Shown in pieces: positions 1,675 through 64,000 of a stretch of DNA of 64,000 nucleotides. The stretch spans positions 27,220,001 through 27,284,000 of the forward strand of contig CM097885.1 in the NCBI GenBank assembly GCA_044892525.1, given 5' to 3'. The first letter of the stretch is position 1; the number at the start of each line of letters is the position of its first letter. This DNA is from Schmidtea polychroa. Taxonomy: Eukaryota. The notes below the pieces were generated by a model. It did no database searches and was not told the origin of the DNA. It saw only the letters and a program-made list of their open reading frames with translations. Made by a program: the position numbers and the translations under genes.

Positions 1675-10271
<8,597 letters not shown>

Positions 10272-15570: not shown

Positions 15571-17292
15571 TTACTTGCCATGATTTTCATTGAAACATGT
15601 CAGACAAAACGCTTTCTAGCACGTAAGGCAATGTGTTGCAACTTGTTTGGTTTTTTTCTGAGCTTTTTCTCTGCCTTCATTCTGGGATATTTTTATCGTA
15701 GCACGACTAACATCTTTTGCGAACAATTTTGTTTGCTTCCTGTGTTGGAATTTGGGTCAGCTGATGATTTTGAGTTGGTCCAACTCTGATACTACTAGGA
15801 ATATTAACTCCAATCAGAGCCAATGCAACAGATTTTGTGAAGTCAACAAGAGTATTTTTTTGGGACTATAATATTTATTATGAATGACCCAGCTATCCAA
15901 AATCACCGTGCTGAGTAGCTGAAAAATAACCTTCCTATACCATTTCACACTTTTTCTTGCCGGGCTGTAATATTCAATCATTTGATCCGATAAGTCAATC
16001 CCACCTTTGACTCTGTTGTAATCCACAATTATTGATGGTTTCAATACTGATTCGCCACTTCGATTCCTTTTTCCTGTTTCTATCTTATCTGTTCCATGAA
16101 ATGTGGAAATGAGGAGAATTTCTCTCTTGTCTTGATATTTGACAATTCTGATTCCTATGTCATTAGATGCTCCCTTTATTTCACCCTTCTTCAATTTCAT
16201 TTTCTTCAGATTTTCTGGTAAGTTTCTGCGATTTCTTTTCAAAGTCCCACAGTATTCAGTATCATTAGCCTTTAGATATTTTGCAAGCTCGATACTACTA
16301 TACCAATTATCGGCGACAAACAACCTTCCACAATTTAGGAGTTTTTCTCCAAGGTCGATGATAACAGATCCTGAATGATCTAATCCTGGTCGTTTATTGC
16401 CTGAACCTTTTCCACAATATACTGAAGCATTCCAAATGAAACCGCACATATCACATAGCTTGAAAATTTTTATGCCATATTTGTGGGACTTTCCAGGATT
16501 GTACTGCCTAAACAAAAGCCCACCACGATGAGAAATCATAGTTTCATCAACAGAAATTTCTTCTCCAGGTGTGTAAAGCTGTTGAATGTTGGAGATTATC
16601 ATGCCCATAATGTTTGGAATTTTATGCAACCTGTCCCCAGGTGTGACAGTGTCCTTATTGCTGAAATGCCAATTTTTTAAAATCAATCCAAATCGATTAT
16701 ACGCCATTTGAATGTGATGGAATAGTGGATGAAAAAATATTTGATCCTTTTTCCAGTAATCTTCAATTCTAGGAAATTTCAGAAGTCCTGTCACAATAAT
16801 AATTCCAATAAATTTCTTCATTTCAACTTCTGTAACGTCCTGCCATTTATTCATTCTTGCTCCTCGAGAAAGCCTAGTCTTTGCTAGAAACTGTTGGGCA
16901 TACCTATTCGTCTCGGTAACCATTACTTGAATAATATCACTGTCAAGCATTTGCTCAAAGACCATAGTTGGCGTAACTTCATTTGCTGTAATTCTTTTAT
17001 GAAGTCCAGAATTTCCATTAAAATTTAACTTGTCTTTCCTAGTCAAATCCATGATTCAATTATCAGTTGAAGGTACTGCACTTAAAACAGACTGATTAAC
17101 TGGATGAGGATTACTAGTCTCTTCTTCTTCACTTGAGGAAGATGACGATGTATTTGATTCTTCAACGGGTTCAAACTCATCCTCACTGCTATCTCCCATA
17201 TCATCCAGGTTGGAATTTTCATCACTGCTAATGTCATACTTGTCTAAAAGTTGAGCGAGTTCATCTGGCGTATAGTTTTTTCTCCTTGCCAA
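15571..17292 (-). pseudogene. piggyBac (PGBD4-like) transposase pseudogene
   Basis: SVDETM, VADNWYSS and GGIDLSDQ DDD motifs. In-frame TGA at 17056-17058, frameshift near 15850, and TAG stops inside the C-terminal Cys-rich domain (RC*SC...HCLTC*KAFCLTCF..H). Confidence 0.9.
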
Positions 17293-19964: not shown

Positions 19965-50420
<30,456 letters not shown>

Positions 50421-52787: not shown

Positions 52788-53845
52788 TGTTGGGTTTTGG
52801 ATTATTTCAAGTCGGTTCTCTCTGACTCCTGGTGTTCTTTAAATTAAAACAATGAACGACCCAACGTATATTGAAACAACAGGTTCACAAATTATTATCA
52901 CTCTACAATTACCAATCAAAGTTTTATACGATTCTCCGCTCGGCGTTGATGCTTTGCAAACAAACAATATTCACCTTTTGATCCTTTAGTTCTGTTGACT
53001 CTCGTTTTCCTCGGTTTCTGTTTGGTTTGATCCCTTTTCGCCTTTCCGTATTCTTAATTCTATTTCTTCTTTTCCCTACCTCCCTAATTCGTTTATTAAC
53101 TTTTCCTATCAACTGATTCTTCGAACCCTAGCTGAGGCAGAATGCCGATTTTCTCTGATTTTCCCTTTGCTTATATACTCCTCGAAATCAGGATGACAAA
53201 TGGTTATTGCCGAGCCAATCTTTCGTTTGACATTTTCTCCTACGTGTTTGCTTCGGCTGTCATCCATAATGGTCCAACGAATCCAGATAATTAATGCCCC
53301 TACCAGTCTTCCTACGCGCGCTATCTTCTCCTTACTCTTTTCCCATTAATCATTGTGTCAAACTAATGGGCCCAAATCTTCCTTTTGTTTGCCTTTCTTC
53401 TTGTTTACCCAGCTCGGGTTTCCTTTATCTATCGGGTTCTCCATTGGCTCGGGTTTCCCATTAGCTCGGGTTTTCCATTAGCCAATTAATTAATTAATTA
53501 ACGTTTTCTGTTTTCATACGTTTGAATGTTTTTCGACCCTTCCTAACCCTTTTCTGATAAATCCCTAACCATCATCTTGTTGACCATTAGCTACTCTATA
53601 CCTGTCCCGTTTTCCCATTCGATTTCGATGATTTTTCCATTTATTGATTTTTCTCGGATTTCCGGATTCTCGCCTTTCGTAATTGCCTTTTGCATTTTCT
53701 AATACTGTTTCCATCGCACTTTCCTTTACTATTAATTCTGTGCACGATCCCGCTTTTATTTGCCATTTTTCCTCGCTTACTTTCCAGTTGAATTATTATC
53801 CTAAATTTTATTTAAATTTTTAATTTTAATTTACAGACCTCAACA
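52788..53845 (-). mobile_element. 3' LTR (1058 bp) of a Ty3/gypsy element
   Basis: TGTTG...CAACA termini; immediately preceded on the minus strand by a polypurine tract; related solo copies at 2430-3208 and 51355-51725. Confidence 0.85.
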
Positions 53846-53858
53846 TATCTCCCCCCTT
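53846..53858 (-). promoter_or_regulatory. Polypurine tract (AAGGGGGGAGATA) abutting the 3' LTR
   Basis: The minus strand reads TCGAGGACGAAAAAATTTTTTTAAGGGGGGAGATA|TGTTG. Confidence 0.85.
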
Positions 53859-55667
53859 AAAAAAATTTTTTCGTCCTCGAAATCTATGTTTTGCTGTGAT
53901 TATGTATTATTATTATTATTATTGTTGTCATTATTATCACTATTATTATTATTATTAATATTACCCTTATTATTATTATTACTATTTATCCGAATTATTA
54001 CTTCAAGATATAGACATTTTAATTTTTCAGATTAATTTTATATTTTAATTGCTCTATGAATTAATTAATTATTGATTTTATTGGTTTTAATTATTTTAAA
54101 TTATATTTAAAGTTTTTAGTTATTGCAATAATCGACTTTCAAAATTCATTTTCCAAAAGACCTATTAATTTCCCATTTGCATTTGTCGATATTCCTGTAG
54201 CCAAAACGTCACTCTGAAATGGATCCACAGTCCAATTCTTATTTGCGCAATTGTTTTTATTTTATTTTTGTTTCACTGAAATAAAAATGTACTCTCACAG
54301 TTTCATTTCATTTTTAGTAATACAGTTTTCAAAAGACTTATTTATGGTGTCGACTATAATTTGCCCCTTATTTTATTATACATTTTAAAATTATAAGTTT
54401 GATTTAAAATTTATAAATTAAAAATTTCAATCCTATAAGCTTCAGGATAAATTTCACATTGTGTAATTATATATATATTTTTTTTTTTGTAGAGAAATAT
54501 AACAACATTTCGATGCCTTTGTTATAAACCCAAAAACATTTTCTGTTTGAATTGAAAAAAATGGTTTTGATTTTAAATATATTCTAATTGTATTAATTTT
54601 ATCAGACATTTCTAATCAATGGGAAAATTTTTTTTTCTCTCTTCGATATATTCGGCTTCGTGCAATTGCCGATCATGGACTCAAAACGCCTTGGAAAAGA
54701 GATAAGATAAATTTTTTTCGTCGTGTAAACCGAGATTGGCCAATGTAAACAAAATAGAGGTGATTAATGGGATTTGCTGATTAATTTTTGTCAGAAAGGA
54801 AATAAAATGTACAACACCCAATCAGTTTGCAGTTGTATGTATGTAATGGTAATGAAATTATTTCTCTTCATAAAGAGCAATAAAAATAAACTACACATTT
54901 GATTGGCCATTTGAAAGAGAGAAAATATAGCCTACTGATTTGTATTTAAAAATCGATTTTCGCTAACGAATTATTTAAAATACATTTATTTTTTTTATAT
55001 TAGAGTTTATTTCATTCACACTTATTTATGGTTGACGATTGGGTTATAAAAACCATGTATGCTACCAAACGTCGAAGAAGAAACACAAAATGGTTAGATT
55101 AATTTTTTTTTGTATTAATTGTATAAAAATTCGAATTATTCTCAGTTATTGATTCTCTATCAAAACCGATGATTGATAAGTTGGGGAAAAATCGATATGC
55201 ATTGACAACAATAAATTATGAGAATTATAGCACAGGTTTGAAATATATATTTATCTAATCTGTCGATCAAATCTCAGAATTCCAGCTCAAATCGGAGGTT
55301 CAATAAAATAATGAAAATTTTTTTTTTATATTCTGAAATATTTTTAACAAATGACTTTTTTTTTTGGGTTTATTAATTTATATTTTTAAGATTGAAGTAG
55401 GTTTATTATTTATTCAATTTATGTAACAATTATATCTGATGTTATGAAATATCGGCAATTATAAAGCAATTCAATGATTTGTATAAAATTGTTATTAATC
55501 CTGTTATTTATTAGCATGAGGATTTGAGTGGATATAATAATATTTAGGCATTTGAGTAATGCTTGCAAATTATAATTGGAAATTATTTGAAAATTACCAA
55601 AGAATAATAATATTTGCAGTTCCCTGAAATGTTAGAGATTTAAATGAGAAATAAACTTGAAAAATTA

Positions 55668-55695
55668 CTACTACTATTATTATTACTACTATCCA

Positions 55696-55753
<58 letters not shown>

Positions 55754-55872
55754 TATTGTTACAATTATTACTGTTATTACCACTATCATTACCATCATTA
55801 TTATCAATATTATTATTTTATCAATATTATTATTATTATTATTATTATCAATATTATTATTATTATTATTTA
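55668..55872. repeat. (TTA)n-rich microsatellite
   Basis: Direct observation. Confidence 0.9.
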
Positions 55873-55899
55873 TCACAATCCTACTCCAATTATCGCAAT

Positions 55900-56056
55900 T
55901 ATCGGGACGTCTATTAATTGAGGGAAATAATTTTTATCGGGACGTCTATTAATTGAGGGAAATAATTTTTTTATCTGGACGTCTATTAGTTGGGGTAAAT
56001 AATTTTTTATCGGGACGTTTATTGAGGGAAATACTTTTTATCTGGACGTCTATTAA
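55900..56056. repeat. Tandem array of ~35-bp units (atcgggacgtctattaattgagggaaataattttt), about 4.5 copies
   Basis: Direct observation. Confidence 0.9.
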
Positions 56057-56699
56057 AAATTAATAAATCAAGTAGACTAACGACAGTCTGGTCAGGTTAT
56101 TGTTATGTGGTGAGAATAAAAGAAATTTTTAATAGTATCTGATTAAATTATATTTTGTTACAATTTGCATTTTTTACAATTTTTGTGTGCGAGTTTATGA
56201 ATTCATTAATTGATTAGACTGGCGCCTTTGGTGGAAATCAACAGTAAAATTTATTGAAAATTTCTTATACTATATTAGTAGCGCGATGATATTAGCTGTG
56301 GTTGTTGTTATTGTTCAAGATGAATACGGTTTACCAAGAATATGGATAATATTGTGGTTAATAACAGAGTTGAGCAGTTGATGGGATATGCTTGTGTGTC
56401 TGTCTGTGTGTGTCTTTATGGTTTGATCGATTTTTATGTGCAAAATATTTGTCTAATTTATTCCCAGTCGCAAGGTAATTTATTTATTCTTTTTATTTAT
56501 ATTTTTTCTTTCATCATTATTACCATTATTATTAATATTATAATTTAAAATAATTTTTTGTTATTAATAACTTATTGGTTTATTTCGCTCGCAGCATGGT
56601 AAAAAGTTAATCTCCCCCGCACCGACCGACTCATGATATCACTTGTTTACTCAGCCTGATAAGGTATCTGCGATGAACATTAATATTCCGAATGAATTT

Positions 56700-56845
56700 T
56701 TTACTTATCCTGCGGTTTTTGACGTAGCAGATACTGATAGGCTCTATAATTAATTACCCTGTGGTTTCTTAACGTAGCCCGTGCTGATAAGCTTTCTAAT
56801 TAATTACCCTGTAGTTTGTTAACGTAGTCTGTACTGATAAGTGTT
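56700..56845 (+). repeat. Three ~49-bp tandem repeats with ACGT and GATA motifs, upstream of a TATA box
   Basis: Unit cctgtggtttcttaacgtagcccgtgctgataagctttctaattaattac; CTATATAAG at 56846-56854. Confidence 0.8.
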
Positions 56846-56973
56846 CTATATAAGTGTCTGCTTTACCACTTTTCGTTAGTTTTGTCTTGCCAATCTTGAA
56901 GTAAGCATTTTATATTTTATTTTTCTTTTTCATATTTTTTTTTGAATTTTAGTAACGCCATCCCTCAATTACT

Positions 56974-57686
56974 ATGGACGTAAGTGATTACTTGTCTTTT
57001 GTTATTTTTTTTTTGTTTTTGTGATTCTTTTTACCATGCTGTCCTCAACTATTAGTAATGCGTTCCCTCATAGCAACCGAACATTTGCAATCGCTGTCCA
57101 GGGTAGCCAAACCCCGGTGATTGCAAGTGCTCGTGTTGCTTATTAAATTAACTTATTGATGTTTATTAAATTAACTTATTTACTTTTTAATTTTAATTCG
57201 TTAATTTGTTTATGCAACTACCTACACTCATGTTTTGGGTCATATATTTTTGATTTTTGATTTTGTATTTATACTAAAAGCAAACCTCTAATTACAGCTA
57301 CTCGTATTTTTCTGACAATTTTAGCCGTATTTATACTTATTTATCAATTACTTCCCTGCACTAATTATTTGTCGAGGGCGCCATGGTACGGAGTTTTACA
57401 TAGTATTTATTTCATTTTTCTTTTCAACCCTTACTATTTTAGGCTGTCCCAGAACCTAAGTTTGAGCATCTCGATGTTATGCAATGGTTATTTGACTGCC
57501 ATACTAACAGGTTTATTTAATTTCTTTTTAAGGGTCCCCTTGCCACCGCGTCGAAAGCGATTGAAACGTACCTTTGCCTGTGTGGATACAGGCAGTAGGT
57601 TTGAAAGACGCCCGCCTTGCAATGTACGCAGGGAATGGGACTGTGGCATCCAAAGTCCCGTTCTGTTGGACTCTGATGACGAATAA
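56974..57686 (+). CDS. Predicted antisense spliced mini-gene (~67 aa; basic NLS-like PPRRKRLKR, acidic tail)
   Basis: Coding pieces 56974-56979, 57443-57486 and 57533-57686 join in frame; GT-AG introns, one with TACTAAC; AATAAA overlaps the stop codon. Confidence 0.5.
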
Positions 57687-58215
57687 AACTTTGAATAAAT
57701 GTTCAGCATACCTTTGTTTTTAATTTATGCTAGAAAGGGTGGGGTAGTTGTGTCCCTCTTCGTGAATAGTCTTTGTTACTACTAATGTGAAATTATTCCC
57801 TACTTATTTATAATTTTGTTCTCTCGCCCCAGTGGGTTACCCATTGCTATATAGTTATGCTAATTCATTAATTACTAATCAGCCATGCTCATTTAAGGTA
57901 GTCATTTCATTATTTGCAACATTTATTTGAGTTATTCTATTTGCTCGTTTTTCTTTATTATTCATTTATTTAATTTATCACTTTTTTAATTATTTGTTTA
58001 TATCAATTTGTTTATTCATTTGATTATTTACTTGGTAATCTACTTATTTTTTTATTTAACTATTATCTATCACTGCCAATTATTTCTTTATATCAATTTG
58101 TTTATTTATTTGATTATTTGTTAATTTACTTATATTTATTTAACTATTATTTTTTTTTCCCGAGGACGAAAAACACCAACAGGGTCCGTTTAAATAATTT
58201 ATTTTTTTAGTCTAA

Positions 58216-58452
58216 TTAATTTATCTCACCATCATCTTCCGATTCCTCTATTTCTTCTACTCTCATTCGAAACATCGCGAAATCGGCTTCGTGTTGAAAC
58301 AATAAGATTTCCAAACGGTCCAACCGCCTTTTCAGACGGAAGTTTTCTTCCTCCAAATCTGTTATTCTGCCCTGCATGCTACGAAACTTTTGCTTTAGTT
58401 CTTGCGTACTTGTTTTACACTCTTTGCATGACATCTCCGAGGCTTCTTGCAT
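58216..58452 (-). CDS. 78-aa leucine-zipper/coiled-coil accessory ORF downstream of pol
   Basis: Heptad L19-M26-L33-L40-L47 with Asn37 at an a position, N-terminal CxxC, acidic C-terminus; splice acceptor ttaatttcag 3 nt upstream of the ATG. Confidence 0.55.
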   Translation of the reverse strand: MQEASEMSCKECKTSTQELKQKFRSMQGRITDLEEENFRLKRRLDRLEILLFQHEADFAMFRMRVEEIEESEDDGEIN

Positions 58453-58626: not shown

Positions 58627-61600
58627 TTATAGTCTTGTCTCATAATATGAATATGATGGTGGTTGAAGGATAGTTAGTTGTCTCTCTTTTACACATATCA
58701 AGATAGTGATGATTATGAAGGTTATTGATAAGATGAGAAAACCTGTTATTAAAATGTAAATGAGATATTCACAATAGTTGATTGTCAAATCCGAATTTAT
58801 CATCATTAGTTTATTTGAGTTAGGTTTTGTCGTCTCTTGGGTCGGTAATTGGAAAGGTGATGTGGTTGTATCTGATTTTCGTTTCGATTCATTGATTGTC
58901 TTGACTTCCACGAAAACTGTTTGCCATCTGCCTGGTTCGGTTATCCATCGCTGATATTTAACTGTTAATTCCCATGCCGTCTCTAAATCAGAAGTGTAAA
59001 GTGTAAAAAAATGATTACCGGCATCTAATATAGTCAGGGTTTTTTGTTTGTAGATAATAACAACTCTTTCATCATTTCCTGATTTTCTATATATCGTTAC
59101 CGGTCCATTTCCAACACTCAGGGTTATACGATTTGACTCGTCTCTGAGATAGATAGACTGGGTCTCACTCTTAAATCGTGACCATTGGTTTCTCACTACC
59201 GTTCCATTTTCGAGGCATATGTTCACGTAGTAGTTTGCATTAACTGAATAATTTTGATTCATTTTCAATTTCTCGTAGCGGATAAATGATTTTCGCGAGT
59301 TAAGGGTGTCAACATTTAACCCTTGAAATGTGATTCGCACTTTCACCAAGTCCACTGGCTTCCAATATATATTGATTCCATTTATCTCTGGTTCTATTTC
59401 GATCAAGTTTCGCATCTCTTTTGTGTGCACTTCTATCGGAATTTGCGTGTACCACTTTGACATGTTCTGTCTCAACAGCCATTGGTACTTGAAATTTGGC
59501 TTTAACTTTCGTACTGCAAATATATCTTTATCATAATTCAGTTCTACCACTGGTGCCGTATTGTCTAGTAAATCAATAATTTCTATTTGGTCTGCGATCT
59601 CGCATTTACAGCTCCATGCCATATTTGTTAGAGTGGAATATATATGTATTTTCTCCATTCCTCGGATTTTGCTTACCGCATATGGTAAGTCAATCTTTTT
59701 GCCGCTCGCAACTGTTATTAACATCAGCATTATTGCTACATATAATATCTTATTGATGTAGCTGACTGGTGTTGGATTTTTCGTGAATTTCTGTTTCAAT
59801 TTTGTTTGACCCGTTACTTTATTCTGCTTGGATCTTAAGGGGTATCTAGATTCATCTTCCTCTGGCACTAGTTTACATCGATTTGCATGCACAATCATCG
59901 GGTTAGCCTTTTTGCTCCTGAATGGTAATAACTTCAAATTGGTTTCGGTGGTGTCGCACACTTTGTAGGGTCCTTTAAATGGTCTTTGCAATTTAGGCGA
60001 TAAACCTTTGAGAGGTTCCGGCCTGTTCAGATATACTAGATCTCCAATCTTTATGCCATGCGCATGTGCTTTTTTATCGTAGGTTTCTTTATATTTCTCT
60101 TGGTTGTGCTTTATTGTCAAACCGGCTTTAGTCCATACTGACTGCATTCTTTCTTGCATCAATGCTTTATAATCGGGTATCTCCATATATTGTGAAATTG
60201 GTGGTTGGAATTTGAGATCAATCGGCATATTATTTTTCCTTAAATACATCAAATAAAAAGGGGTCTCACCTGTACTTTGATTTACTGCATTTCTGTAGGC
60301 AAATAGACACGGCTTTATGAAGTCGTCCCAATCTTTCTGTTTTCGGTTCACATATGATGAGATCATATTTATCAGTGTCCCATTAAATCGTTCCACTAAT
60401 CCATCAGTTTGTGGATGATATGGTGACGTATTCAATTTCCAAATTCCAAATAGGTCTGTGATTGATTTGAACATCTCGCTTTGAAAGTTCTTTCCTTGAT
60501 CAGTTAACAATTTCTTTGGAGTACCATAGCGAAATATTATGTTTTCCACAAATATTCTAGCAATCGTGTCTGCTTTTTGGTTTGGAATAGCGTATGCCTC
60601 TGGCCATTTGGTAAAATAGTCACAAAAAACAACAATGTATTTGTTTCCTTTTGTTGTTTCCGGTAATGGTCCCAGAATATCCATTGCCGTCATCTCCATT
60701 GGTGCTGCGGGTACTGGCATCGGTTTTAATGGTACTTTAATCTTTTTACCAGTATTTCTGCGGGTGATGCATACTTTGCAACTGTTACACCAATTTTTCA
60801 CGTCTTGCTCCATTGTTGGCCAAAAGTATTTCAATTTTAATCTTGATAGCGTCTTGCGCGTTGACAAATGACCTCCCAACGCTCCATCATGATACTGCAT
60901 CAGTAATGCGTCTCTGTGCTTGGCTGGTATAATAATTAATGCTTCCCCATTTTTCCAACATTTAAGTATTCCATTATGAATTACATATTTGCTGTTTGCA
61001 TCTGTAAGTCGTTTCCAGTCTTGTTCTTTTCTTATTTTGACCGCTTGTTCCATAAATTGTTTTAATTCACTATCGTTTTCCTGATCATTTTGAAGTTCAG
61101 ACATATCATTAACAGCTTTGATTGCAGCGAATATAGTACCTTCCAATTTTTCAGGTGTCCCTTCACTATTACTTTCTGGGATTCTCGACATTGCATCTGC
61201 GTTCGCGTTAGCTTTACCTGTCCGATATTTAATCTCAAAGTCGTATTCTTGGAGGGCAATCGACCATCGTATTAATTTACTGGCTGAATCTCTGTGTTTC
61301 ATTAACCACTGTAATGGATTATGATCTGTATAAACAGTAAATTTTCTGCCCAATAAATATTGTCTAAAAGTAGTAATTCCATACACTAACGCTAACGTTT
61401 CCTTTTCAATCGTTGAGTAGTTTTTCTCGTGAGGCCTCAGTGATCGGCTTGCGTAGGCTATTACGTGGTCCTTTTCACCTTCAAATTTTTGTCCCAATAC
61501 CGCACCCAATGCAACGTTGCTTGCATCCGTCATCAAGATAAATTGTTTCGTAAAATCTGGACATCTTAATATAGGAGTTGTCACTAATTTCTCTTTTAAT

Positions 61601-64000
61601 ATATTGAAAGCATTTTGTTGCATTTGTCCCCAAATAAATTTATTGTTTTTCTTTAGTAACGTATTCAATGGTTGTGGGATATGAGAGAAATCTTTTATAA
61701 ATTTTCTGTAATAGCTTGCCAAACCTAAAAATTGTCTAACCTCATCGGCATCTTTTGGTACTGGGTACTCTTCCACTTTTTTGATGTTATCTGGATTAGT
61801 TTGTAACCCTCGCCGTGATATTATATGTCCTACATAAATCACTTCTGCTTTGCCCCATTCACATTTCGATGGTTTGATTTTTAATTTTGCACTTTTGAGC
61901 CGTTTAAATACAGTTTCTACATCTTTCAGGTGTTCTTCGAAATCATTTGAAAATATTATTATATCGTCGATATATACCAATGCATGTCGAATTCCTCGTA
62001 ACACATAATTCATTCCTCGTTGGAATGTAGCTGGGGCTCCTGTTAATCCAAATGGTAACACATTAAACTCATACAGTCCTTTGCCATCCGAGAACGCCGT
62101 CTTTCCTCTATCTTCCTCTTTTACTCTAAATTGATTGTACCTTTTGTTTAAATCAATAACAGTGAAATATCGTGCCTCTCCCATTTGATCGAACATTTCT
62201 TGAGGTACTGGAATTGGATAAGTGTCTTTCCTCGTAACTTGATTTAGCTTCCTATAATTTACGCAAAATCGTAAGTCTCCATCCTTTTTCTTAACTATCA
62301 CTATTGATGAGAAGAATGGTGACGCACTATCTCGAATTATTCCAAATTCCTTCATTGCTGTAATCTGTCTATCACTTTCATCTTGATGAACGTAGGGGAT
62401 TCTGTATGGCTTTATTTTTATTGGAGTTTCATCTAATAACGGTATTTCATGCTCAATTACATTGGTTAGACCTAAATCATATTCGTGTTTGGCAAAGATA
62501 TCTCGGTATTTTCTCAACAGTTTTGTGAATTCCTTTTTCTGCATCTCATTTAAATCATTGCTTACCACTTCAGGCTCCTTGTACACCTTGACGTTTCTTG
62601 GTATTTTACAATTTGTTTCAATAGACATTTTTGATAATTTTCCCAATTTTGTTTTTGGGTGTAACTGAACCGGTTTCTTACTGCTATTCGTTATATGGAC
62701 TGGTACTATCTGATTTTCCACTTTAACAACTTCGTCACATATCGGTAAATCATATTTTTCGACTAGCGTTTGATTTGGTTCGAATATAAAATCACCATCA
62801 TCCACACTCATGGTATTTGCACAATATACCATCTCCGATTGTGGTGGTATTGTCAATGTCTGATTCACAAACACTTCACCTGCCCTGTGAATTATTTCTC
62901 CTGTTTCTCTTGCTATCAAATTACCTGTCTTTAAGTCAAGTGAGACTCCGTCCAGCTGCTCTAATATATCCATACCGATCAGACATCGTACTGGGCTTCC
63001 CTCCATTATGAGCGCATCGTGCGCTATTATTCGATCTCCAATATGGAATATGACGTTAAGTTGTCCAATTATGTTTAATTCATTTTTTGATAATGACCTC
63101 ACTATTTCGTCGGTAGGCTTTATTCGCATTTTCTCCTTCGCGTTTAATACATTTTCCGATATTATTGTGTGACTAGATCCCGAATCGACTAAAGCTTCCA
63201 CTTTATGTTTGTTCATTTGTATAAATATTCGGGGTTGCTTTCCTCTTTTTGTTAATGTCATCAATGAGTAGTTGCATGGTAAGCCTAACATATTTTTTCT
63301 CTCGATCTCTGCGCTAGAAGGCTCGATTCTCTCTCCTACCATTCCTTCACATTGTAATGCGATGTTTTCCACTGGTTTCATCTCTCGTAATCGATCAACT
63401 GGATACACTGGTGCTGGTTGCATAAATGATTTTGGTATACACAATTTTGTAAACGTGTCTACGCTACTCGCATTCAACAGTGGCTCTTGTAAGATTTGAT
63501 AAGTTCTCAACGCTTCTTTATTCATTCCACTTAGTTCTTGATTGTCAACATATAACGGTGCACTATCACCCTCGTTGTCATTGTCATTGTTCTCGTCTCT
63601 TGAAGGGGTAGTACTAGCGTAGCTCACCTTTTTCTTCTTTAATATTCTCGCTTTGAGTATCTCCAACTCCTGATATTGATGATGAGTAATGAAGAATCTA
63701 GCCAATAATGGTATGCAACCAATTACTAGTTTCCACGACCAACCTGTGATCGCGTATAATCTGTGTGTTGACAGGATCTGCGACATTATTACTTTGATTA
63801 CAACACATATTACATAAATTCCAATCAATCCGGCACATGCTTGTCCAATGAACATAAACTTTCCCCAGATCTTTTTCATTGTATTATACGTCGCTTTCTT
63901 GTAATGATATGGAGTTAACAAATACTCGTAATTTACCTTCCCACTTCCGCTTGGGAGAATTGTATCTACCATTTCCATTATTACTCTCTCTTTCTTTGAT
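58627..64000 (-). CDS. pol: Ty3/gypsy polyprotein (>1790 aa, open past the window end): viral-glycoprotein-like TM region - PR - RT - RNase H - IN(GPY/F) - type I membrane protein
   Basis: PR ALVDSGS (D at 63186-63184); RT LPFGL/YIDD; RNase H TDAS, EKETLA, YTDH, ADAMSR; IN HHCC (HDGALGGH..CKVC), MDILGP, TDQG, VERFNG, KGPYKV. The frame is open from 64000 (SKKERVI) into the listed Met. Confidence 0.95.
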   Translation of the reverse strand, partial: SKKERVIMEMVDTILPSGSGKVNYEYLLTPYHYKKATYNTMKKIWGKFMFIGQACAGLIGIYVICVVIKVIMSQILSTHRLYAITGWSWKLVIGCIPLLARFFITHHQYQELEILKARILKKKKVSYASTTPSRDENNDNDNEGDSAPLYVDNQELSGMNKEALRTYQILQEPLLNASSVDTFTKLCIPKSFMQPAPVYPVDRLREMKPVENIALQCEGMVGERIEPSSAEIERKNMLGLPCNYSLMTLTKRGKQPRIFIQMNKHKVEALVDSGSSHTIISENVLNAKEKMRIKPTDEIVRSLSKNELNIIGQLNVIFHIGDRIIAHDALIMEGSPVRCLIGMDILEQLDGVSLDLKTGNLIARETGEIIHRAGEVFVNQTLTIPPQSEMVYCANTMSVDDGDFIFEPNQTLVEKYDLPICDEVVKVENQIVPVHITNSSKKPVQLHPKTKLGKLSKMSIETNCKIPRNVKVYKEPEVVSNDLNEMQKKEFTKLLRKYRDIFAKHEYDLGLTNVIEHEIPLLDETPIKIKPYRIPYVHQDESDRQITAMKEFGIIRDSASPFFSSIVIVKKKDGDLRFCVNYRKLNQVTRKDTYPIPVPQEMFDQMGEARYFTVIDLNKRYNQFRVKEEDRGKTAFSDGKGLYEFNVLPFGLTGAPATFQRGMNYVLRGIRHALVYIDDIIIFSNDFEEHLKDVETVFKRLKSAKLKIKPSKCEWGKAEVIYVGHIISRRGLQTNPDNIKKVEEYPVPKDADEVRQFLGLASYYRKFIKDFSHIPQPLNTLLKKNNKFIWGQMQQNAFNILKEKLVTTPILRCPDFTKQFILMTDASNVALGAVLGQKFEGEKDHVIAYASRSLRPHEKNYSTIEKETLALVYGITTFRQYLLGRKFTVYTDHNPLQWLMKHRDSASKLIRWSIALQEYDFEIKYRTGKANANADAMSRIPESNSEGTPEKLEGTIFAAIKAVNDMSELQNDQENDSELKQFMEQAVKIRKEQDWKRLTDANSKYVIHNGILKCWKNGEALIIIPAKHRDALLMQYHDGALGGHLSTRKTLSRLKLKYFWPTMEQDVKNWCNSCKVCITRRNTGKKIKVPLKPMPVPAAPMEMTAMDILGPLPETTKGNKYIVVFCDYFTKWPEAYAIPNQKADTIARIFVENIIFRYGTPKKLLTDQGKNFQSEMFKSITDLFGIWKLNTSPYHPQTDGLVERFNGTLINMISSYVNRKQKDWDDFIKPCLFAYRNAVNQSTGETPFYLMYLRKNNMPIDLKFQPPISQYMEIPDYKALMQERMQSVWTKAGLTIKHNQEKYKETYDKKAHAHGIKIGDLVYLNRPEPLKGLSPKLQRPFKGPYKVCDTTETNLKLLPFRSKKANPMIVHANRCKLVPEEDESRYPLRSKQNKVTGQTKLKQKFTKNPTPVSYINKILYVAIMLMLITVASGKKIDLPYAVSKIRGMEKIHIYSTLTNMAWSCKCEIADQIEIIDLLDNTAPVVELNYDKDIFAVRKLKPNFKYQWLLRQNMSKWYTQIPIEVHTKEMRNLIEIEPEINGINIYWKPVDLVKVRITFQGLNVDTLNSRKSFIRYEKLKMNQNYSVNANYYVNICLENGTVVRNQWSRFKSETQSIYLRDESNRITLSVGNGPVTIYRKSGNDERVVIIYKQKTLTILDAGNHFFTLYTSDLETAWELTVKYQRWITEPGRWQTVFVEVKTINESKRKSDTTTSPFQLPTQETTKPNSNKLMMINSDLTINYCEYLIYILITGFLILSITFIIITILICVKERQLTILQPPSYSYYETRL

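Follow-up and report, generated by a model that had tools for sequence, protein, structure and literature searches.

The closest described counterparts of the locus analyzed here are antisense genes of Ty3/gypsy elements such as Grande gene23 and Boty brtn, a nearer precedent than the complex retroviruses to which an earlier sequence-only reading had likened it. Among those viruses, HBZ of HTLV-1 is spliced and has a bZIP domain, and bovine leukemia virus has antisense transcripts with a microRNA cluster. HBZ is nuclear and antisense (PMC11963269). In Ty3/gypsy elements, additional antisense ORFs located after pol and before the 3' LTR, termed aORF-3R, are known from maize Grande (gene23), rice RIRE2, Silene Retand and PvRetro13, according to the available part of a review (PMC7264820). 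As far as that part extends, gene23 is driven by a promoter of its own, located upstream, and its product is nuclear, Rev-like roles have been proposed for plant antisense ORFs, micropia has non-coding antisense RNAs, and the function of antisense accessory genes of LTR retrotransposons is an unanswered question; it describes no introns for aORF-3R and calls for a search for spliced antisense transcripts (PMC7264820). Outside plants, a Boty-like Ty3/gypsy element of Botrytis cinerea carries the antisense extra gene brtn (Zhao et al. 2011, as cited in the available parts of PMC8365987 and PMC4227169). Domain layouts have been published for planarian Burro/GYPSM1 elements (PMC6431247) and for Platyhelminthes GAG-ENV-POL errantiviruses of the HSV/gB type (PMC13524379), and in the main texts of these two papers, to the extent available, the word "antisense" occurs 0 times.

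The gene studied here lies in a 64,000-nucleotide stretch of Schmidtea polychroa DNA (the window), inside a young, 17.2-kb, Burro-like Gag-Env-Pol Ty3/gypsy element that is bounded by a 4-bp target-site duplication. On the minus strand, the window contains the 3' LTR (52788-53845), identified by comparison with the 5' LTR, and the adjoining polypurine tract (53849-53858); the 5' LTR lies beyond the window end, at about G000:C1:27288968-27290033 in neighbouring DNA that we added, and the LTR pair is 99.4% identical. A single frame of 3290 codons encodes Gag-Env-Pol, and its 3' part (58627-64000, minus strand) spans the fusion glycoprotein end, PR, RT, RNase H, IN and a C-terminal extension up to the pol stop at 58627. 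The full order runs through Gag, zinc knuckles, ubiquitin-like and BCL2-like matches, a chuvirus-type fusion glycoprotein, PR, RT, RNase H and integrase to the C-terminal extension. PF03732, PF00098, PF24664 and then PR-RT-RH-IN share one frame, in which the fusion glycoprotein stands after Gag and before Pol. The ubiquitin-like (PF00240, E 2.7e-4) and BCL2-like (PF00452, E 0.024) matches are both below the Pfam curated cut-off, and their order is as published. This one-polyprotein arrangement, from Gag to PR-RT-RH-IN, is that of Burro/GYPSM1 and the flatworm errantiviruses. Unlike Burro-1 to -4, which exceed 30 kb and carry MATH, BIR and ankyrin domains, the element has no Pfam match to any of those three in the N-terminal 1000 aa of its polyprotein, and its length, half that of Burro-1, sets it apart from that element. 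A query with the polyprotein's C-terminal part gave no match at E 1e-30; after the integrase, 58627-59750 (minus strand) encodes a second membrane-protein-like part.

Searches of the same genome with the gene region returned 435 DNA candidates and 404 protein candidates, or about 400 copies, and 66 of 70 fetched copies continue into the pol end, which places the region within the element, as had been claimed from the sequence, and not in single-copy host DNA. Diversity among copies is about 0.03, as befits a young family. The rest of the 3' internal region (53850-56550) contains ATT tracts and 35-bp repeats (55896-56056), and the copies align poorly upstream of about 56550, where variable cargo sits beside the conserved gene. 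Elsewhere in the window we noted an LTR-like piece (2642-3211), about 70% identical to the element LTR and belonging to a related family with 2568 candidates, a PF13843 (DDE_Tnp_1_7) transposase frame (15814-17055), a hAT transposase interrupted by a stop (22179-24053) and a dynein heavy chain exon (7032-7850).

The gene is on the plus strand, opposite to the polyprotein, between the pol stop, 0.9 kb away, and the 3' LTR, 3 kb away. A putative enhancer (56656-56842), its function inferred, holds four GATA-type CTGATA[A/G]G sites, three of them in 50-bp tandem repeats; they make up 4 of the window's 5 plus-strand sites, and 66/67 copies have 2-4. Next comes the TATA box of the predicted antisense promoter, CTATATAAG (56846-56854), identical in 29/29 copies, followed after 29 nt by a conserved Inr-like TTAGTT (56876-56881); this site and the predicted non-coding exon 1a together occupy 56876-56900, with the TATA-to-donor length fixed in 67/67 copies. 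Predicted intron 1 (56901-56952; 52 nt, GTAAGC..TAG) measures 46-56 nt among copies and keeps GT and AG in 67/67, and predicted exon 1b (56953-56979), with ATG GAC at 56974-56979, is of fixed length in 67/67. Predicted intron 2 (56980-57442; 463 nt), from the donor GTAAGT at 56980 to the acceptor at 57442, varies widely in length. Then follow predicted coding exon 2 (57443-57486; 44 nt, length fixed in 66/67), predicted intron 3 (57487-57532; 46 nt, nearly always 43-49 nt among copies), which includes a branch-point-like TACTAAC, and predicted coding exon 3 (57533-57686, counted to the stop TAA at 57684-57686; length fixed in 67/67). The last acceptor is AAG in the studied copy and CAG in 28/29 other copies. 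An AATAAA overlapping the stop varies in some subfamilies while that at 57694-57699 is identical in 29/29 copies, making the latter the likelier poly(A) signal. At the level of DNA anatomy, direct reading thus confirmed every signal that had been listed from the sequence (TATA box, Inr-like site, splice signals, ATG GAC, TACTAAC and the TAA within AATAAA), and the exons translate into the 67 aa that had been given for the spliced product.

The strong donor motif GTAAG[T/C] occurs twice on the plus strand of the 4.8-kb 3' internal region, both times as a predicted donor, and 0 times on the minus strand; together with the frame-specific selection described below, this goes beyond a chance pattern. 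According to the available part of a study of Schmidtea mediterranea, intron sizes in that species peak at 45-85 bp (PMC13594981), a range that includes introns 1 and 3, the latter at its lower edge. The suggestion that the short introns resemble those of the host fits these two, whereas intron 2, at 463 nt, is not a short intron; a scan of the 64-kb window found no host short introns for comparison. A further micro-exon had been proposed near 57298, where the AG is absent in at least 11/67 copies, which leaves that micro-exon unsupported. A better candidate is 57377-57385, which contains a second in-frame ATG (57383-57385) and may either form a micro-exon of 9 nt or close an alternative first exon. 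It is followed by a 57-nt GT..AG intron (57386-57442), with ATG, GT and AG kept in 67/70 copies, and the second start preserves the reading frame in either role. The sequence-only reading had mentioned neither this second start nor the GATA-type sites nor a hairpin in intron 2. Exon 1b is linked to the start of this hairpin by three or four degenerate repeats, each about 20-27 nt long (56953-57090); about half of the copies have lost one of them to a 13-bp deletion that leaves the stem untouched.

We assessed conservation in 70 copies, 30 picked by DNA similarity and 40 by exon-3 protein, all chosen by similarity to the gene region, so that element copies without the gene fall outside the count. 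In 59/70, none of the six splice ends is lost and both the ATG and the 67-codon frame are preserved; conservation of splice sites and frame in other copies had been suggested as a check. All 30 DNA-picked copies retain the 67-codon frame, with coding exons measuring 6, 44 and 151 nt; one has lost the ATG and one the last acceptor. Across 67 copies, a set that omits the rearranged or truncated L039, L060 and L071 and that we used for exon and intron lengths and dN/dS, non-modal lengths number 0, 0, 1 and 0 for the exons and 46, 38-51 and 35 for the introns, a contrast that is partly expected, since the exons are GC-richer and composition alone predicts fewer indels in them. Conservation of GT and AG discriminates poorly, as 44/92 other GT/AG are kept in at least 65/67 copies.

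The frame itself is more telling. In the 30 DNA-picked copies, dN/dS is 0.22 (0.08-0.50) for the spliced frame; the remaining five frames give 1.05, 1.05, 0.58, 0.59 and 1.19, and the pol end gives 0.27. In the pooled set, which is biased by exon-3-protein picking, the spliced frame has 0.14 and one of the reverse frames 0.36. We removed 9 further near-duplicates for tests of variants, hairpin and tail motif, and in these 58 copies, against a mutation-type-matched null, shared variants were silent in 13/21 cases (6.8 expected, p=0.005) and singletons in 15/42 (10.9 expected, p=0.09), the shared-versus-singleton contrast being borderline (p=0.05-0.06). Shared third-position changes were silent in 11/11 cases; exon 2 alone is uninformative, with 2 silent and 3 replacement shared changes. 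Two competing ORFs were rejected. An unspliced ORF from the ATG at 57474 (57474-57686) is open through to the tail in just 12/58 copies, and because it mostly closes before the tail, the frame needs intron 3 removed; a minus-strand ORF (57488-57709) is open in 49/58, but the reverse frames lack clear selection in the 30 DNA-picked copies. As judged from the aligned copies, the spliced frame is under purifying selection that is specific to that frame. With 59/70 copies intact, exon lengths fixed while introns drift and a frame-specific dN/dS, the locus is likely a real accessory gene, and we consider a real, spliced, protein-coding gene quite probable. Annotation based on long open frames misses such genes; here every coding exon is at most 51 codons long.

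We found no counterpart of the antisense gene in family B (70% nucleotide identity in pol, 2 loci) or family C (43% amino-acid identity, 8 loci), so the group as a whole can do without it and it is confined to a single family. Two family B copies (L075:2650-5300 and L078:3800-6300) are 97% alike in pol and have different DNA between pol and the 3' LTR. Family C (L080-L095) has a 3050-aa Gag-BCL2-Env-Pol frame; a second frame of some 700 aa follows with an overlap, and the 3' region is short. In the element itself, the pol stop is followed on the sense (minus) strand by a 78-aa coiled-coil-like ORF with an acidic tail (58216-58452), outside the spliced gene; with 467 genome candidates and dN/dS of 0.44-0.46, it is probably a second accessory gene, which we regard as putative. 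The genome also has dozens of Bcl-2-like matches (G000 C1:50168106-50168414, C1:34775875-34776186 and others) whose frames, about 175 aa long, contain a single in-frame TAG; they may be a mobile family in which the stop is read through or is common to the members.

RNA data comprised two contig sets and a roughly 2% share of two single-cell runs from a related organism; none of the predicted splice junctions was among the 15 of 31 joints listed from these sources. Intron 3 was read unspliced (depth 127 and 80 at 57515), one X1 contig spans 57097-57514 without splicing, crossing the intron-2 acceptor and intron-3 donor, and the oligo-dT run has no plus-strand 3'-end peak. From poly(T) loose ends, we infer that most of these reads are genomic (minus) strand RNA, where splicing is not expected. 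In X20, minor-strand reads cover the exons at a depth of 4-9 and positions 57058-57361 at 0-0.5, and they extend past the TATA box and the poly(A) signal too. We did not count the X20 depth peak at 57438-57741 as mRNA, because the poly(T) loose ends found at 57415 suggest that priming took place internally on the genomic strand. Nor did we take six molecules beginning at 57336 to mark a start site, since most copies have about 21 additional letters there. A separate X20 opposite-strand peak at 58122-58277 has an A-rich loose end and may be low-complexity cross-mapping or another antisense RNA.

The lack of a spliced read among the joints listed would fit a passively captured host gene fragment, or a chance pattern in a young family with GC-rich blocks kept for genomic-strand RNA structure. 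The youth of the family and the differing 3' cargo of the two family B copies agree with this account, as does exon 3, which folds better than shuffles (z -2.6 and -3.3), reaching -3.3 on the minus strand. Neither version, however, predicts that shared variants, which arose during element replication, should still be mostly silent in one frame, and no host counterpart was seen, though own-genome searches were filled by element copies. We consider this explanation unlikely, though slightly less so than the other alternatives.

A second set of alternatives turns on intron 2, which contains a pre-miRNA-like hairpin (57072-57140; 69 nt, 28 bp) that folds on both strands, at -38.5 kcal/mol (z -6.9) on the plus strand and -38.4 (z -6.3) on the minus strand. 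It is the strongest fold of the 4.8-kb 3' internal region and was found in 69/70 copies. As a stem-loop in the 60-80-nt range that is stable beyond shuffles, it resembles a pre-microRNA; it matches no known pre-microRNA family, with 0 Rfam matches at E up to 5. Two common polymorphisms exchange C-G and U-G pairs on the plus strand and keep the pairing, and no double compensatory change was found among the copies. One-sided pair types favour the plus strand as G.U in 13/18 cases (p=0.05) and shared ones in 7/9 (p=0.09), variants by which the plus-strand hairpin appears weakly favoured.

If the gene is real, its protein could instead be Rev/Rex-like, its arginine-rich patch binding this stem-loop on the genomic strand and aiding nuclear exit or packaging of unspliced RNA. 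The small protein has a basic central part, the hairpin lies in the 3' internal region and folds as well on the genomic strand, and such roles have been proposed for plant antisense ORFs, according to the available text of the review (PMC7264820). Against this stand the one-sided changes that retain G.U pairing on the plus strand, a protein in which no nuclear export signal was identified and sister families that replicate without the gene, and we find a Rev/Rex-like role rather improbable. About as improbable is an antisense unit that is chiefly RNA, a spliced transcript hosting the microRNA-like hairpin or forming double-stranded RNA with the genome and the peptide secondary, for while the hairpin's rank as top fold, its pairing-preserving polymorphisms and the non-coding antisense RNAs of micropia (PMC7264820, available part) fit such a role, the frame-specific excess of silent changes needs a protein, and the hairpin has neither a double compensatory change nor an Rfam match.

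We therefore return to the reading of the locus as an accessory gene of a Burro-like Gag-Env-Pol Ty3/gypsy element, with a selected frame, a predicted TATA promoter of its own, a spliced mRNA and a 67-aa protein that is likely nuclear, which we think is probably correct as a whole. Exon 3 encodes a basic NLS-like patch, a predicted beta-hairpin and a C-terminal acidic tail whose short sequence fits a SUMO-interacting-motif (SIM) pattern. The tail motif is unchanged in 54/58 copies and conservatively changed in 3 more. AlphaFold modeling of exon 3 without an alignment was poor (pLDDT 65.7, pTM 0.31), with the beta-hairpin weakly predicted. Queries with exon 3, in place of the spliced 67-aa form, found no homologue in Pfam, in a word-indexed search of 27-88 aa proteins, in the ESM Atlas or by phmmer over 1.84 billion proteins. 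The predicted product is likely a small nuclear regulator.

The mechanism that we propose would build on a demonstrated base of position, copy number and frame-specific selection. Packaged genomic RNA is the opposite strand, and the spliceosome is blind to antisense introns; because the packaged RNA is the other strand, these introns would escape splicing and pass through reverse transcription intact. This logic, invoked in the sequence-only reading, is established, and the unspliced reads agree with it. The GATA-repeat enhancer and TATA box would drive a plus-strand transcript independent of the LTR, and the second start (57383) may yield a near-identical protein. SUMO is linked to silencing in other animals. 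At the weakest step, which we put forward tentatively and on motif evidence, the basic patch would take the protein to the nucleus, where its acidic SIM-like tail would bind SUMO or the element's own ubiquitin-like domain and blunt SUMO-dependent silencing. In planarians, Burro elements are silenced under SMEDWI-2, a nuclear PIWI protein, according to the available part of PMC8532177. Cutting of the intron-2 hairpin to a small RNA is conceivable but doubtful. The complete scheme, in which a GATA enhancer, two starts and introns give a dual output of a 67-aa nuclear SUMO decoy against PIWI/SUMO silencing and an intronic microRNA, is quite unlikely. Should either the tail's SUMO binding or the small RNA from the intron be borne out, the gene would be a counter-silencing device of an invertebrate endogenous retrovirus-like element. 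The family is high-copy and recently active, and public single-cell runs contain reads of a close relative. Planarians offer RNAi, and their nuclear PIWI control of Burro is known (PMC8532177, available part), so that the question can be tested in an animal.

Set beside the known systems, the gene shares with aORF-3R the slot between pol and the 3' LTR and the orientation antisense to gag-pol. It is likewise present in most copies and conserved as the element proteins are (dN/dS 0.22 versus 0.27 for the pol end), and likewise has no database homologue (exon-3 query). Where gene23 has its own promoter, here a TATA box and Inr-like site are conserved, with few minor-strand reads and no junction among the joints listed; where gene23 has a nuclear product, here a basic patch suggests one. 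Unlike aORF-3R, the gene belongs to an animal host and an envelope-carrying element and has three predicted spliceosomal introns, a 67-aa product and an intronic hairpin; we found no sequence similarity to aORF-3R. Boty brtn is likewise an antisense extra gene of a Ty3/gypsy element outside plants, although its host element is fungal, carries a chromodomain and lacks env, unlike the planarian element; if brtn is spliced, the intron-bearing design is already in print. With HBZ and bovine leukemia virus, the gene shares a spliced (here predicted) antisense unit in the 3' part of the provirus, a small nuclear (here predicted) product and a hairpin RNA in the same region. Unlike HBZ, its TATA box, at 56846, lies 3 kb inside the element and not in the 3' LTR, exon 3 has no Pfam match and hence no bZIP, and the lineage is unrelated; the gene is not a member of the HBZ-type deltaretrovirus antisense genes. 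If the dual output were true, the complex-retrovirus design of HBZ plus a BLV-like microRNA would have been reached independently in an invertebrate Ty3/gypsy element. The literature searched, with most subscription papers and some supplements outside it, contains no description of this antisense gene and no intron-bearing antisense gene in an animal envelope-carrying element. Together, these comparisons place the gene in a slot where antisense genes are already known from plants and Botrytis, as an animal, intron-bearing variant that is new within the literature searched.
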